From assembly GCA_024613925.1 (NCBI GenBank), contig GCA_024613925.1_4713.1: DNA of 64,000 bases. One strand, written 5' to 3'. The notes beneath the pieces are model-generated. The model worked only from the letters and a program-made list of their open reading frames with translations. It was not told the DNA's origin and made no database searches. The DNA comes from a phage. A program made the translations under genes and the position numbers. Shown one piece after another: positions 5,227-11,242 of the stretch (the stretch's first letter is position 1; each line of letters starts with the position of its first letter).

Positions 5227-7785
5227 TTACTGCTCTTCACGTTCCAGCAGATACTCGGAAGCGGTAATACCGTTTACCGTACGTACTGCTTTCAGACGAG
5301 TATCATCACTCAGAATCACGGTAACAGATTGCAGACCTTTTACTTTGGTTTCGAAGGTCTTGAACACCTGATCCAGCATACGAGCAATGCTTGGGTTGGT
5401 TGCAGCCGATGCGTGAGTGTAACCGCTCTGGTTCAGCTTCAGAATCTTGGCGTTGGTCGGTACGCGAACAACAACATGCGGACGCATCGCGAACACGCTG
5501 TGATTAAACCAGTAAGCATCGTTGCTATCTTCGTCGGTAACGATGTCCGGATTAACACGCATATCCTCGATAGCCGCATCCGCCAAACGACGTTCGATTT
5601 CGTCAGCATCCAGAGAGCCATCTTTCTCCAGTTCTGCACGATACTCGCTCATGGCAACCAGATGACGTTCACGATTCGCTGCGGATTTTTCGTGAGCTGC
5701 TTTCAGGTAGTCATGCATGTTGTACAGTTCAGCCATGGAAAGACGAATGTTCCACTGACCTTCGCCATCACGATTGCAGTAGAGACACTTCAGCATGTTG
5801 ACCCAGGTGTAGTAGCAATTGGAGAACTCATCTTCAATGAACTTCTGGTCCATTTTAAGATCGTGAATCAGCCAACCGGACAGTTCTCCGATATCATCAA
5901 CGAAGCTAGAGATGGTGGTTTCAGAGAAGTTCTTCGGTACGATACGTTTGATCAGCTTATTGACGTCTTTGGTCATGCTATCGTTCAGGAAATGCCAGAT
6001 ACGCAGAGGAATGACATCTCGATACTGTTGCATGATCTGACGATAAGCTTTGATATCGTCGCTACGACCTTTATCAATAGACAACGCATCCAGGAATTCA
6101 TGGATTGCATCCAGCTCTTTGTCGGTATAGGTTCCCAGATAGGAATTGACGGTGGCCAGGAATGCTAATGCGTCGTTTTGGTTAACGTCGGTGTTGGTCT
6201 GCTGAATGATCGCCACTGCGGCTTTAGTTTCAGCATCCTCAACGCTTGACGCTGCGATTGCATCGGTGACGGTAAACAGTTTCATTTCGCGCTGCTCACC
6301 GACAACGATTGGCTCACGCTGAACCGGCTTGTTAAGACTAACACGAACAACTTCTGCTTGCGCGATGCGATCCAGTTTTGCCATTTCCTGCTCTGCCATA
6401 CGACGAGCGGTTGGATCTGATTCAAGTTCGATGTATTCCACTTCTTCCTCCGTGAGGGATGTAATGTCAACAATGGTTTCATGAAGAATTCCGTTTTCGT
6501 CGATACGTGCCCGACGAGCGAAGTGCCTGAAGTCATACAACGTTGGCCAGCGACTATTAGGTGCGTAGTCTTTGGCTTTCAGACGCATCTGCATAAATTC
6601 TTCATGTTGAACAACACGACCGTAACGCTTAGCATCTTCGGTCGCATCAATTGGATTAACGGTCTTTGTTACCGTAGCGGAACGAGCCGTACGAATGGGT
6701 TCCGGTTTCACCTGCGCAGGTTCAGGTTGAACGGGTTTCTGCTGCCCAGCCTTAACATGCCATTCGGGCTCTTCGTACTGCTCAGCAAATTGCTCAGCCG
6801 CTGCAAAGATATCGTTGATACCACCAATATCTCCTTCAGGATTTGTCGAGTAAATCCGTGGTTGTGGTGCCTCGTAACGCGGCGCTGTAGCAGCAGGTGC
6901 ATCATCAACGATAGGATCGTCATCACCAACATCATACAAACGGTTGAACGCACAATCCTTCGAATCGATGTACGATGGCGCTTGTGGTTGAACAACCGTC
7001 GGCCGAGGTTGTGCGCCGTATCCTGGCGTTGTTGGAGCCATACCACGCATAACTGCCGGATTAGGCCGGTATTGCGGTTGTGGATAGGTTCCACCATACA
7101 TGGCATATGCAGGCTGTTGTGGTTGACCGTACCCGTTGCTAACCATTGCGCTTGCTTGCGGCCCACGATAAGTCATCCCCATCTGCATCACCTGCTGCTT
7201 CAAACCACGTGACTTCTGAGCGATTTGCGCTAGGCTTCCGCTTTTATTCAGCTGCGTGTACTTATTCGCGGCTTCCGGGTTAATGCGTGATAATTCAATC
7301 GCGCGATAATATTCCGGGTACTGATTAGGTTCAAAGAGCCACGTTACAAGATGATACAGCGCAACTGTGCTCACAGCAGCAGAGACGATCTGGTCGTCGG
7401 ACGCGTTCTGCGGCATCGGGTTGATGTAAGAGAACACGTTCCAACAACAGTCTTCAACAAGCGATTCCATCATCATGTCGTTATTGGTATAACGTGCGAC
7501 GAACTCGGTTTGTATTTTGTCTTGCTGAGCGAAGTCTTTCAGGACATTAAAGATAGCTTGACGGATTTTAACGATCGTCGCTTCTTGGGTGATGAAGTTA
7601 TAGTTCTGCTGATATGAGGGTTGTTGGTATTGTGGTGGTTGATAGGCGTTATTCGGGTATGCGCCGTACGGTGATTGCTGATACTGTTGCTGACGAACCT
7701 GTTCAGCCGCATAATTAACCGTGCTCGTATAAGGGTTTTCGCTATAGCCCATTTGTTGATACATGTTGTTACTACCGTTATACAT
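5227..7785 (-). CDS. hypothetical protein (852 aa) with Q/Y/P/N-rich low-complexity N-terminus and a second Q/P/Y/G-rich segment
   Basis: ATG with AAAGGA RBS; residues 1-65 and about 197-272 are dominated by Q, Y, P, N, G; the rest looks globular. Confidence 0.6.
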   Translation of the reverse strand: MYNGSNNMYQQMGYSENPYTSTVNYAAEQVRQQQYQQSPYGAYPNNAYQPPQYQQPSYQQNYNFITQEATIVKIRQAIFNVLKDFAQQDKIQTEFVARYTNNDMMMESLVEDCCWNVFSYINPMPQNASDDQIVSAAVSTVALYHLVTWLFEPNQYPEYYRAIELSRINPEAANKYTQLNKSGSLAQIAQKSRGLKQQVMQMGMTYRGPQASAMVSNGYGQPQQPAYAMYGGTYPQPQYRPNPAVMRGMAPTTPGYGAQPRPTVVQPQAPSYIDSKDCAFNRLYDVGDDDPIVDDAPAATAPRYEAPQPRIYSTNPEGDIGGINDIFAAAEQFAEQYEEPEWHVKAGQQKPVQPEPAQVKPEPIRTARSATVTKTVNPIDATEDAKRYGRVVQHEEFMQMRLKAKDYAPNSRWPTLYDFRHFARRARIDENGILHETIVDITSLTEEEVEYIELESDPTARRMAEQEMAKLDRIAQAEVVRVSLNKPVQREPIVVGEQREMKLFTVTDAIAASSVEDAETKAAVAIIQQTNTDVNQNDALAFLATVNSYLGTYTDKELDAIHEFLDALSIDKGRSDDIKAYRQIMQQYRDVIPLRIWHFLNDSMTKDVNKLIKRIVPKNFSETTISSFVDDIGELSGWLIHDLKMDQKFIEDEFSNCYYTWVNMLKCLYCNRDGEGQWNIRLSMAELYNMHDYLKAAHEKSAANRERHLVAMSEYRAELEKDGSLDADEIERRLADAAIEDMRVNPDIVTDEDSNDAYWFNHSVFAMRPHVVVRVPTNAKILKLNQSGYTHASAATNPSIARMLDQVFKTFETKVKGLQSVTVILSDDTRLKAVRTVNGITASEYLLEREEQ

Positions 7786-7819: not shown

Positions 7820-9616
7820 TCAATCGATTATGTCGTGATCGTTAATTTCTACAATTTCTTCATCGAATCGACCGACGTCTTTCTTCAAGCCTGCATTGGT
7901 TGCTGCAACGTCATTTGCAATTTGTGGGGTAATGATTAACCGACCGCGTTCGTCGATAGGTGCGTACATACTGAACTTCTGACGTCCGGTTGGTTCGGAG
8001 TGTGGAAGATTCAGATAGCTTGCACAGAACGGGATGGAACCACTAACCAAACGACTCTCGTCAGCCAATGCAGCACCGCCTGCGTTTTGGCTCTGGAGAA
8101 CAACATGCGTGCTCACTTTGAACAGCATGCAATCACCAGGTGACTGAATCGATGTTGCCACTTTTTCACGTTTGTCACGATTGCTCTGGATATTGAGAAT
8201 CGCTTCCGTTGCAACTTGATTTCGCAACGCCTTCTGTACATCGCGATTGGTCATCTCTTTACGGTTGTTCTGTCGTTTACCACGTTCCGTGGTTTTAAGA
8301 TGGAACCCCAGTTTAAAGATGCTCTTACGCACATCCTCCATGACATATTCCAACACCATCAATTCCTTACCGAACATCGTCGTGGTATCAACACGACTCA
8401 TTTCGATAGTGACATTATCAATCAGATACGCCATAAATTCGTAGAAGTCGTCGCAAGGAATATTTTCCTGTTTGAACTTCTTCTGTTGAATCTCGTCAAC
8501 GTAAAGATCGAGACTGTCGATGTGGTGGTTTACATCACGCAACAAACGCGCATCCGCATTGTTGTTATTAAAGATAATCAAACCGAGTAATGTACGCCAA
8601 TGGTCTGGCGCATTCGCGAACTCTTCAACCGGATAGTCTTCCGGAAAACGATCGTAATAACGGTCGATGAGATACAAGAATGCACCGACAAGGCCAAGAA
8701 CAATACGTTCCGTGCCTCCACGTCTTACAGCAATTTGAATATCAGGATGTTTGTAACGTACAGCGCTAGCGCTACGACTTTTACCGCTTTTGCTGATACT
8801 AAAGCCTTTAGGAATAACCCCCATGGTGCGATAGATTACCCATTGGTCACGCGGAAAATCACGTTCAGCAAGGTTCCGTCCGGTTACGGCTTCGACACCT
8901 GCAAAACGTCGGAAACACTCACCCACCCCGTACTTCGCAAAGAGATAGTGACCCAGTGTGGTTACGCTGGTGTGGTTGATGTTGTCGCCGTTCACTTTAC
9001 TTTGTTTGGTAAGATGATAGATTTGCGACCAGGGTAATGACAGGTAATGACGATAATCGATACCGGTCGGTGTATCATTGCTCAGGAACTGATACGGTGT
9101 ACGTTTAACCGTGATTTTGTCACGCGGAAGCATGATGAACGCCATGTCTTTCGTGTAACTGATTACAGGGTCAGCGAGCACCGCACTGAGAATGAAGTTC
9201 GCACCACGTAGACGCATTTTACCACCCTGACCTACTGCGGGCAATAGGAGAGGGTGTCGGATAATACAGTAGTCCTTTCCTGGTTCACGACGGTCACCTG
9301 ATTCCATCGCGCCGTACCAGCGGAATTCTAGCATCACCATAAACACATCGGAAGGCGCAAGGTCGAAGGTCAGCTTACCGCTATCCTTCCCTTTGGTTTT
9401 CTTTCCTCCGCTTAAGTAGTGGAACTGTTCGCGGGCCATACAGCGACGCAGGCCATGATACACCAGATCCTTAGGTAAACTATCTTTGCTGTTCCGCCAA
9501 AGACGATCAACATAGGACTCAACATCTTGCATCTTATCGACGACGATGTTGCGTGCTATCTTCTCGTTCATCTTCGGTGCAAGCTCAGCGACAGCTTTGC
9601 AGAATCTAGGATCCAT
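7820..9616 (-). CDS. hypothetical protein (598 aa)
   Basis: ORF-track start 9619 is GTG; the adjacent ATG at 9616 has AAGGAG 6 nt upstream. Confidence 0.6.
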   Translation of the reverse strand: MDPRFCKAVAELAPKMNEKIARNIVVDKMQDVESYVDRLWRNSKDSLPKDLVYHGLRRCMAREQFHYLSGGKKTKGKDSGKLTFDLAPSDVFMVMLEFRWYGAMESGDRREPGKDYCIIRHPLLLPAVGQGGKMRLRGANFILSAVLADPVISYTKDMAFIMLPRDKITVKRTPYQFLSNDTPTGIDYRHYLSLPWSQIYHLTKQSKVNGDNINHTSVTTLGHYLFAKYGVGECFRRFAGVEAVTGRNLAERDFPRDQWVIYRTMGVIPKGFSISKSGKSRSASAVRYKHPDIQIAVRRGGTERIVLGLVGAFLYLIDRYYDRFPEDYPVEEFANAPDHWRTLLGLIIFNNNNADARLLRDVNHHIDSLDLYVDEIQQKKFKQENIPCDDFYEFMAYLIDNVTIEMSRVDTTTMFGKELMVLEYVMEDVRKSIFKLGFHLKTTERGKRQNNRKEMTNRDVQKALRNQVATEAILNIQSNRDKREKVATSIQSPGDCMLFKVSTHVVLQSQNAGGAALADESRLVSGSIPFCASYLNLPHSEPTGRQKFSMYAPIDERGRLIITPQIANDVAATNAGLKKDVGRFDEEIVEINDHDIID

Positions 9617-9655
9617 CACACACTCCTTTCAGAAAGTTGCTTAAGCAGATTAAAG

Positions 9656-11092
9656 TTACTTTTTCGATGCCGCTTTCTCAAGAATCTTGAAAAAGGTCAT
9701 ACCTATACCGACAACGGCCGCAGTTATACTCGCAGCGGCTTTCCAAACATCGACGTTACGTTGACGTCGCGCTTCTTCCGCCTCACGTTGTCTTTTTGCC
9801 TCCTCATCACGTCGACGTATCTCAGCAGCAAACTCGTCGTGCTTACGTTTAGCTTCTTCGTCTCGACGACGAAGTTCAGCGACGAATTCTTCATGTTTGC
9901 GTTTAGCCTCGTCATCACGACGTTTTAAATCAGCTTGATAATCTTCGTGTATTTGTCTACGTAGATCATCTTGACGCTTCATTTCGGCTTGGTGTTGTTC
10001 CATCCTACGTTTTTGTTCGTCTTTAAGCTGATCGAGTTCGGCTTTATGTTGTTCATCGCGCAGCTTTGCGTCGGCGCGATGCGCCTCATGCATCTGTGCG
10101 ATAACTGCCTTGTGTTCATCCGCCATACGTCGCATTTCAGCCATCACCCCTTTAAGGGTTTCTTCTGATGCCTTACGTTCGTAGCTACGTTGGTCGAAAT
10201 CATTTTTGTAGGCTTCTTTTTGGATGGGGTCGCGCCAATGCAATGCCGATTCACGTGTCGGAAAAACATTGTACTTCCACATCTCTTTTTCCAAATCTTC
10301 GACCGGTACGAAGATGGAGTCATTATTCCCGAAGGTAACCAACATACCTGGCGCGCCTGCTCCATTCGTTGGTTTTATTTCGAACGCTTTCCCCAGCACG
10401 TTAACCCATAAGCTATACGGATTATGAAAGTCGGGTGGCGTCCAATGGATAGTGAGTTGCGTTCCGAGAATTCGGAAACCCTCTGTTTTTCCCGTCAAGC
10501 TCCGCGCGCACGTTGCGATGTAGGGGTGATCAATCCCTTTCGTAACGTGGTCTGCGCTTTTGTATTCTCCTTTAACTTTTACGATTGCCACGTTGATTTG
10601 CGCGACATAAGCGGGTTGATTAAAGTTCAACGTGTTGAGGTCAATTTGACATATTTCATCCAGCGTATCGTACCAGTCTTGCTGGTCTAATAGGCGCGGC
10701 ATTTTCTCGGTGTTAACAATACGACGGATATGCGGTTTCCTTATCGCGTAACCTGTGCCGTTTTTAACACGGAGTATATCCCGACGTCTACCCGCGTAGA
10801 CGAAGTTTCTGAATGCACCATTCGCATTAGATACGTCATGGCTGTCAACTATTACAGGACTACGAAATTTTGAACGTCGTACGATCCTGAATGTATTGCC
10901 GTCCTCAACCCTACCAGGAATGTACTGGAACATATTGTCGGAGGTGATCACCAACACGGTATGGCCAGATTCATTAATACATGCCCATCCTAATTCCAGG
11001 TCATATAACGGTTCAGCATAACCGTCAATGCGATAAGCGTGCGTACCATCCCACGGTTCGAACGCGGTATCACATATTGGCATGGAGGGCAT
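9656..11092 (-). CDS. hypothetical tail-anchored membrane protein with charged coiled-coil repeats
   Basis: ORF-track start is TTG; ATG at 11092 has GGAGG 6 nt upstream. Globular N-terminal ~330 aa, then K/R/E/D-rich helix with about 2.5 copies of an 18-aa unit (RRRDEEAKRKH-D/E-EF-A/V-AE), then one hydrophobic helix (AAASITAAVVGIGMTFFKIL) and a short basic tail. Confidence 0.6.
   Translation of the reverse strand: MPSMPICDTAFEPWDGTHAYRIDGYAEPLYDLELGWACINESGHTVLVITSDNMFQYIPGRVEDGNTFRIVRRSKFRSPVIVDSHDVSNANGAFRNFVYAGRRRDILRVKNGTGYAIRKPHIRRIVNTEKMPRLLDQQDWYDTLDEICQIDLNTLNFNQPAYVAQINVAIVKVKGEYKSADHVTKGIDHPYIATCARSLTGKTEGFRILGTQLTIHWTPPDFHNPYSLWVNVLGKAFEIKPTNGAGAPGMLVTFGNNDSIFVPVEDLEKEMWKYNVFPTRESALHWRDPIQKEAYKNDFDQRSYERKASEETLKGVMAEMRRMADEHKAVIAQMHEAHRADAKLRDEQHKAELDQLKDEQKRRMEQHQAEMKRQDDLRRQIHEDYQADLKRRDDEAKRKHEEFVAELRRRDEEAKRKHDEFAAEIRRRDEEAKRQREAEEARRQRNVDVWKAAASITAAVVGIGMTFFKILEKAASKK
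9812..9919. repeat. imperfect tandem repeat, 2 x 54 bp (plus a partial third copy downstream), encoding the 18-aa charged unit of the 9656-11092 protein
   Basis: Units of about 54 bp starting CGACG..., roughly 65 percent identical at DNA level and stronger at protein level. Confidence 0.5.
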
Positions 11093-11242
11093 CGTCAACC
11101 TCCATCTGATTGAAAACTATCACGCATAACGCATTTCCCTTTTCTTGTTCTTATCGAGCCGACAGCCGACGGTTTCAGCATCGTTCCTAGCGCGAGAACG
11201 ACCTTACGTGTTGTCTATGCCTTATTCATCGCAGGCGTCTGT

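Follow-up and report, generated by a model that had tools for sequence, protein, structure and literature searches.

The locus and the layout of the protein

The window analysed here is a 64,000-nucleotide stretch of phage DNA (NCBI GenBank assembly GCA_024613925.1, contig GCA_024613925.1_4713.1). Its first 25 kb share 97.6% nucleotide identity with Escherichia phage vB_EcoM_Goslar, a nucleus-forming jumbo phage of the Chimalliviridae whose host is E. coli. We focused on an open reading frame (ORF) of 852 amino acids (aa) on the minus strand, whose product is 98.8% identical (tblastn) to Goslar gp038 (HOV27_gp038, YP_009820723.1; annotated as hypothetical) and is placed by profile comparisons in the JADA family. 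An AAGGA ribosome-binding site stands about 9 nt 5' of its ATG. A gap of 34 nt separates the ORF from the gene for an nvRNAP subunit, which lies upstream in the same orientation and whose Goslar counterpart is labelled nvRNAP in Table S4 of a Goslar preprint (bioRxiv 10.64898/2026.04.21.720040). The features of the locus are given below, with the evidence for each in brackets; dN/dS is the ratio of nonsynonymous to synonymous divergence.

5227..7785, minus strand: whole gene, 852 aa, ortholog of Goslar gp038 and assigned to the JADA family as a divergent member (ORF listing, tblastn, hhalign, synteny)
7591..7785, minus strand: first low-complexity region (LCR1), an N-terminal Gln/Tyr/Asn/Pro-rich tail, residues 1-65 (composition, aromatic spacing, FoldIndex, AlphaFold2, dN/dS)
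7198..7590, minus strand: helical N-terminal domain (NTD), residues ~66-196 (all-helical AlphaFold2 model with a confidence score, pLDDT, of 59-80; hhalign to a PhiKZ-seeded NTD profile)
6970..7197, minus strand: second low-complexity region (LCR2), the Pro/Gln/Gly/Tyr/Ala/Met-rich first part of the linker, residues 197-272 (composition, FoldIndex, AlphaFold2, dN/dS)
6586..6969, minus strand: second part of the linker, acidic and Pro/Ala-rich, residues 273-400 (composition; FoldIndex unfolded at 270-415)
5230..6585, minus strand: C-terminal domain (CTD), homologous to the JADA CTD, residues ~401-852 (hhalign, weak collinear BLASTP matches)
5506-5763, minus strand: insertion of ~85 aa in the CTD, predicted helical, residues ~675-760 (no counterpart in PhiKZ JADA)
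7820..9619, minus strand: nvRNAP subunit gene (phrog_2943 'polymerase', E 7e-120; tblastn to PhiKZ gp123 and 233 other chimalliviruses)

The protein is thus laid out as a tail, an NTD, a long linker and a CTD. A first-pass annotation of the window had flagged positions 6969-7785, which correspond to residues 1-272 of the ORF (7785 down to 6970), for two stretches rich in Gln, Tyr, Pro and Asn that were said to be fused to a large globular C-terminal part. These stretches correspond to the tail at the N-terminus and to the start of the linker that joins the two domains, and they lie outside the folded domains, because FoldIndex returned unfolded segments at residues 1-70, 168-263 and 270-415, and AlphaFold2 modelling of residues 1-290 gave a pLDDT of 27-39 for LCR1 and 25-31 for LCR2 (residues 206-290). 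The same model contains a helical bundle at residues 61-205, the NTD, whose helices reach ~203-205. Both flagged regions are predicted to be disordered, and neither method returned them as ordered. The large C-terminal part is present as the CTD, but the folded helical NTD between the two stretches (66-196) and the disordered residues 273-400 had been overlooked.

The full-length AlphaFold2 model has a mean pLDDT of 37.8, too low for use in a fold search. Within its linker, at residues 320-343 (6756-6827, minus strand), a short amphipathic acidic helix is predicted at ~324-335, followed by the motif EEPEW ('DIFAAAEQFAEQYEEPEW'). Motifs of this type are common to the Goslar clade, the homolog P0005 ('EEEDPMW') and RAY gp4 ('EEPMF') and are not family-wide, and they may represent a lineage-specific docking motif.

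Relationship to the JADA family

Ordinary sequence searches missed the relationship of this protein to known families. Pfam and PHROGs scans returned nothing meaningful, phmmer against the PDB gave no match at E <= 10, and in tblastn against 50,697 phage records Goslar was the sole match. A homolog search with the full protein among 5.8 billion proteins found only four close relatives, and searches started from two alignments gave a single match each. An exhaustive phmmer search with residues 274-852 against 1.84 billion cluster representatives recovered its own cluster and P0005 only (38% identity), the latter located in a syntenic contig. A match to Cas9_C_2 was below threshold and was dismissed.

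The position of the gene was more informative. The gene right after the nvRNAP subunit gene is gp124 in PhiKZ (721 aa), gp146 in Eowyn (790 aa) and gp4 in RAY (827 aa), and all three products gave weak but collinear BLASTP matches to the window protein (E 4e-4, 4e-5 and 2e-3, respectively). PhiKZ gp124 also matches PDB entry 9RP3, 'Gp316/JADA', across its full length (1666 bits). For the CTD, a profile of the Goslar clade was compared with an independent PhiKZ-seeded profile built from 73 sequences that excluded the Goslar clade; hhalign aligned the two with 99.2% probability (E 3.5e-19, 341 columns, query 405-849). The corresponding NTD profiles aligned with 93.4% probability (E 2.6e-7, 112 columns). 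Judged by these profile-profile matches, the ORF at 5227..7785 is a highly divergent ortholog of JADA (PhiKZ gp124 / Pa36 gp316). A Foldseek search of the NTD against BFVD gave weak, non-significant similarities (E 0.04-0.2) to uncharacterised myovirus proteins of 660-870 aa, one of them from Erwinia phage RisingSun.

In addition to homology in both domains, the window protein shares with JADA the succession of a helical NTD, a long disordered linker and a large CTD, membership of the Chimalliviridae and a gene that shares its strand with the nvRNAP subunit gene and follows immediately downstream of it. It is just ~17% identical to JADA over the aligned CTD columns, however, and 131 aa longer than PhiKZ gp124, with a 65-aa Gln/Tyr-rich tail, a longer linker (~200 aa) and the ~85-aa CTD insertion as additions.

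JADA is of interest as an essential protein that is conserved in nucleus-forming jumbo phages and triggers a host defence system. It is restricted to the Chimalliviridae, is expressed early and is abundant at 10 min (PMC12931631). The published protein consists of a helical NTD (residues 1-170), a long stretch that is disordered or flexible (170-270), to which LCR2 is equivalent, and a CTD that forms a rigid ring-like homodimer (PDB 9RP3), the N-terminal region and linker of Pa36 JADA having no density by cryo-electron microscopy (cryo-EM) (PMC12931631). A fluorescent fusion of Pa36 JADA was diffuse before infection and formed foci at the early-infection (EPI) vesicle afterwards (PMC12931631). 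The CTD alone sets off the Avs5 (Sir2-STAND) defence, as known only from the Pa36 and PhiKZ orthologs (PMC12931631), and phage transcription is strongly perturbed when PhiKZ124 is knocked down (PMC12571901). The Goslar gp038 ortholog brings this protein into a genetically tractable E. coli model.

The JADA family and its disordered linker are therefore already published. What appears to be undescribed in the literature we searched is the conserved low-complexity grammar of the linker and the Tyr/Gln-rich N-terminal tail of the Goslar type. Text searches of the JADA papers found no mention of low-complexity composition, condensates or a Goslar ortholog, and a survey entitled 'Prion-like domains in phagobiota' makes no mention of jumbo or phiKZ-like phages.

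Composition and recurrence of the low-complexity regions

The two flagged stretches are real features of the protein. LCR1 consists of 22% Gln, 18% Tyr, 14% Asn, 9% Pro and 8% Ser with ~5% charged residues, and LCR2 of 17% Pro, 16% Gln, 12% Gly, 11% Tyr, 11% Ala and 9% Met. The combined fraction of Gln, Asn, Tyr, Pro, Gly and Ser in 40-aa windows rises to 0.70-0.78 in LCR1 and 0.65-0.68 in LCR2, compared with ~0.15-0.35 in the C-terminal half, and the 40-aa Shannon entropy falls to a minimum of 2.82 bits at residue 24 (median of the protein, 3.69). To score such composition against a local background, we defined a prion-like window as 40 aa with Q+N of at least 20%, DEKR of at most 10% and QNYGSPM of at least 65%. 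Of the 76 ORFs in the 64-kb window that reach 100 aa or more, this one alone satisfied the rule. Tandem Repeats Finder detected no DNA tandem repeat beneath the bias, which is thus compositional and does not stem from a recent slippage array.

The two regions differ in flavour. LCR1 fits a Q/N-rich prion-like composition (Q+N 36% over 65 aa), whereas Q+N reaches merely ~19% in LCR2, for which P/Q/G/Y-rich is the better description. The 13 aromatic residues of LCR1 (12 Tyr and one Phe) are mostly placed every five residues, with a gap variance of 3.64 where shuffled sequences average 15.0 (P ~0.01). Compared with an 89%-identical relative, dN/dS was 0.13 in LCR1, 0.13 in LCR2 and 0.14 in the folded NTD, and since the two regions match the folded domain in this respect, both are translated and under purifying selection. 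In the relatives P0003, P0004 and L008, LCR1 is enlarged by a 9-residue Q/P/Y insertion and smaller indels.

Divergence along the gene is mosaic. In the IMG/VR relative L008 (6835-9426), synonymous divergence from the window gene is 1.16-1.18 for residues 1-196 and 0.77 for residues 197-272, falling to 0.26 for residues 273-400 and 0.11 for the CTD. This pattern suggests that an N-terminal module, comprising the tail, the NTD and the start of the linker, was exchanged by recombination among Goslar-like phages.

The composition and position of the low-complexity regions are conserved across the family. With the nvRNAP subunit as anchor we fetched 80 IMG/VR loci, and 84 loci in all carried its gene. 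In 81 of these 84, the next 1.5 kb downstream contains the start of an ORF no shorter than 500 aa. A prion-like window occurs in 52 of the 74 distinct downstream genes and in one displaced homolog, or 53 of 75 members, but in only 1 of the 366 other ORFs of these loci. Among the 74 adjacent genes, 27 have it from residue 1 onwards and 50 have it beyond the NTD, the same two positions as in the window protein. The observation made in the first-pass annotation is thereby confirmed as correct and as no chance feature: the regions are conserved in composition among syntenic members, and they are indeed uncommon among phage proteins when judged against neighbouring ORFs.

Linkers across the family show a median of 170 aa, and Q/N/G/P/S/M make up 50% of their residues. 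Relative to the CTD they are depleted in aliphatic residues plus Phe (12% vs 27%) and in Lys (1.8% vs 5.7%), with aromatics nearly level (7.3% vs 8.0%). The flavour changes from clade to clade: Goslar and Eowyn use Q/Y/P, RAY uses Q/M/P, and others have GWGQ, GGFNQGG or QGFGG repeats. At least 11 members, belonging to several separate clades of the nvRNAP tree, have linkers rich in Arg, Asp, Gly and Ser with Lys nearly nil, for example Ralstonia phage FLC4-4C gp119 (L086:5188-7278) and Serratia phage PCH45 (L087:5142-7205). Such a grammar, too, is characteristic of RNA-binding condensate proteins.

Linkers of this second type are also seen in loci L039, L045, L053, L066 and L085, and in all of these homologs RGG-, RS- or RD-like runs, for example 'GGSRRGGRRSSSRGDERRRGRGRGRDRDD', take the place of the Gln-rich type. 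The displaced homolog noted above, on an IMG/VR contig (L014:9345-11189), has 614 aa and both prion-like windows. Other ORFs separate it from the nvRNAP subunit gene, which ends ~2.7 kb upstream, so the adjacency of the two genes, described as direct and invariant (PMC12931631), has exceptions. In the distant Pseudomonas phage EL, gp81 (L089:4838-7177) follows the nvRNAP subunit gene and still matches the JADA CTD profile (E 2.7e-9); its N-terminus is rich in Gly, Gln, Met and Asn, and the NTD profile fails to recognise its N-terminal domain.

Possible roles of the tail and linker

We consider it probable that the window protein is a divergent JADA ortholog whose disordered tail and linker act as adhesive sticker-and-spacer regions and not as an amyloid prion. 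The low-complexity regions would then work as aromatic Tyr (and Met) stickers set within Q/N/P/G spacers. An even placement of aromatics among polar spacers, as expected of such regions, is found in LCR1. On a dimeric core, the two tails and two linkers would form four flexible arms, each weakly adhesive to itself and to partners, and these arms could help to concentrate JADA and the partners of its NTD at the EPI vesicle or the nascent phage nucleus. The NTD partners might be nascent RNA or transcription or translation factors. A valency of this kind fits the foci seen only during infection, the transcription phenotype of the knock-down and the Arg-rich linkers found elsewhere in the family. 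Condensate formation by these regions is plausible from their composition. The composition of the family's linker amounts to a low-complexity grammar that is under selection and conserved in position, in two flavours that are typical of condensate and RNA-binding proteins. This bears on the organisation of the compartment that arises first in infection, and it offers a testable hypothesis for an essential protein.

The interpretation offered in the first-pass annotation is partly supported by these findings. It had likened the regions to eukaryotic prion-like or phase-separating domains, a resemblance that holds in the loose sense of stretches rich in Gln, Asn and Tyr with few charged or aliphatic residues. 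A role during assembly, which it had also raised, is unlikely because the JADA family is early-expressed.

Three known systems help to place the regions. The eukaryotic RNA-binding proteins FUS, EWS and TAF15 carry 'prion-like' domains rich in Tyr, Gln, Gly and Ser. The LCRs resemble these low-complexity domains in their polar Q/N/S/G/P spacers, regular tyrosines, scarcity of charged and aliphatic residues, predicted disorder and association with nucleic-acid-related folded domains. There is no homology, however, and the LCRs are much shorter (65 and 76 aa versus ~160-260 aa), more proline-rich and placed in a bacterial and viral setting. In E. coli SSB, a disordered Gly/Gln/Pro-rich linker that is reported to promote condensates connects an interaction module with an oligomeric core that binds nucleic acids. 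This linker is likewise not homologous to the LCRs, is poorer in aromatics and terminates in a defined acidic tip motif. Within the family itself, our wider literature search found ChmC as the sole condensate-related chimallivirus protein. This conserved, nucleus-associated RNA-binding protein is tied to gene expression and provides a precedent for discussing protein-RNA condensation in chimalliviruses (NAR 2024, PMC11077065). It is unrelated to the window protein, however, and is encoded at another locus (Goslar gp176). ChmC has a small Whirly-like fold.

Several observations weigh against the adhesive sticker-and-spacer reading. The aromatic residues of LCR2 are not spaced significantly more regularly than in shuffled sequences (P 0.32), and about 22 of the 75 family members lack a prion-like window under our rule. 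A loose rule for Arg/Asp-rich windows was unspecific, picking out 16 of 74 family members and 46 of 367 background ORFs, so the second linker class is descriptive only and rests on composition restricted to the linker. The sequence, the length (92-425 aa) and the compositional class of the linkers all vary, as they would also do in a passive spacer. Expressed in uninfected cells, Pa36 JADA is diffuse (PMC12931631), and hence its linker does not drive assembly unaided at those expression levels. Foci that form only during infection fit a recruited client equally as well as a scaffold.

The serious rival is that the LCRs are a passive entropic tether that just spaces the NTD from the dimeric CTD, their composition reflecting relaxed constraint together with avoidance of aggregation and proteolysis. 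The behaviour of the Pa36 ortholog when expressed alone counts in its favour, as do linkers that can barely be aligned and switch compositional class between clades, and an N-terminal module with a dS ~10 times that of the CTD is consistent with free exchange. Against it stand a dN/dS equal to that of the folded NTD and a compositional bias that is strong and recurrent. Family linkers keep their aromatics while losing aliphatic residues and Lys, the tyrosines of LCR1 are evenly spaced, and the alternative linker classes are low-complexity too and not generic. We regard the tether as possible, though with well under an even chance; if it is correct and the linker is a mere spacer, the present finding shrinks to routine annotation.

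Adhesive regions also admit a bolder version, in which the linker would be a conserved condensate-forming module across the Chimalliviridae, made of Gln, Gly and Pro with aromatics in most lineages and rich in Arg, Asp, Gly and Ser in others. Built on a dimeric DNA- or RNA-binding core, it would nucleate a phase-separated hub for early gene expression around the EPI vesicle. We think this rather unlikely. If true, such a hub would be what viral factories are in eukaryotes, here in a bacterial virus, and it would account for the essential nature of JADA, for the derailed transcription on its loss and for the patrolling of this site by host Avs5.

It is very unlikely that the composition instead reflects a packaged and ejected virion protein, with disorder helping it to pass through the tail or to interact with DNA in the capsid. 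Mass spectrometry of Goslar virions purified in caesium chloride did find gp038, with 26 peptides, 28% coverage and ~17-39 copies per virion, or an estimate of ~25, a number similar to that of the vRNAP subunit gp078 at ~21 (bioRxiv 10.64898/2026.04.21.720040, Table S4). Proteins that are not part of the virion reached similar or higher numbers in the same preparation, namely PhuZ (~171), chimallin (~126), ChmC (~78) and thymidylate synthase (~20), which leaves virion packaging of gp038 ambiguous. Moreover, gp038 is not among the proteins modelled in the cryo-EM structure of Goslar, and PhiKZ gp124 has no structural annotation, with early expression and abundance at 10 min (PMC12931631).

Hijacking of host factors, by short motifs or by mimicry of host P/Q/G-rich linkers, would imply specific binding in place of bulk multivalency. 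E. coli SSB and FtsK do have Q/P/G-rich linkers of similar flavour. A second-hand statement, untraceable to primary data, names DnaX and FtsZ of the host as binding partners of PhiKZ gp058, gp124 and gp287 (PMC11849849). We see only a slim chance for this explanation: no short motif is shared family-wide, that of the EEPEW type being limited to the Goslar clade and RAY, and the composition recurs although the hosts span Pseudomonas to Vibrio. Finally, a genuine self-templating amyloid prion switch, which the high Q+N and few charges of LCR1 might suggest, deserves almost no credence, because proline is evenly interspersed at 9% in LCR1 and 17% in LCR2, levels that disfavour cross-beta amyloid, while a heritable conformational state would be of no obvious benefit to a lytic phage whose infection cycle is short, and other clades carry Arg/Asp-rich linkers in its place.

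The gene and its neighbours in the window, by their Goslar names, are the major capsid protein gp041, gp040, gp038, gp037 and, on the opposite strand, the portal gp036. A promoter and terminator scan found none exceeding shuffled expectation. The gp040 homolog (9656-11098, minus strand, 480 aa) lies directly upstream of the nvRNAP subunit gene, the place occupied in PhiKZ by gp122. Knock-down of PhiKZ gp122 perturbs phage transcription, as does knock-down of gp124 (PMC12571901). At its C-terminal end the gp040 homolog carries three copies of the charged repeat '(K/R)RRD(D/E)EAKRKH(E/D)EF(V/A)AE(L/I)R', followed by a hydrophobic, tail-anchor-like segment, 'AAASITAAVVGIGMTFFKIL'.

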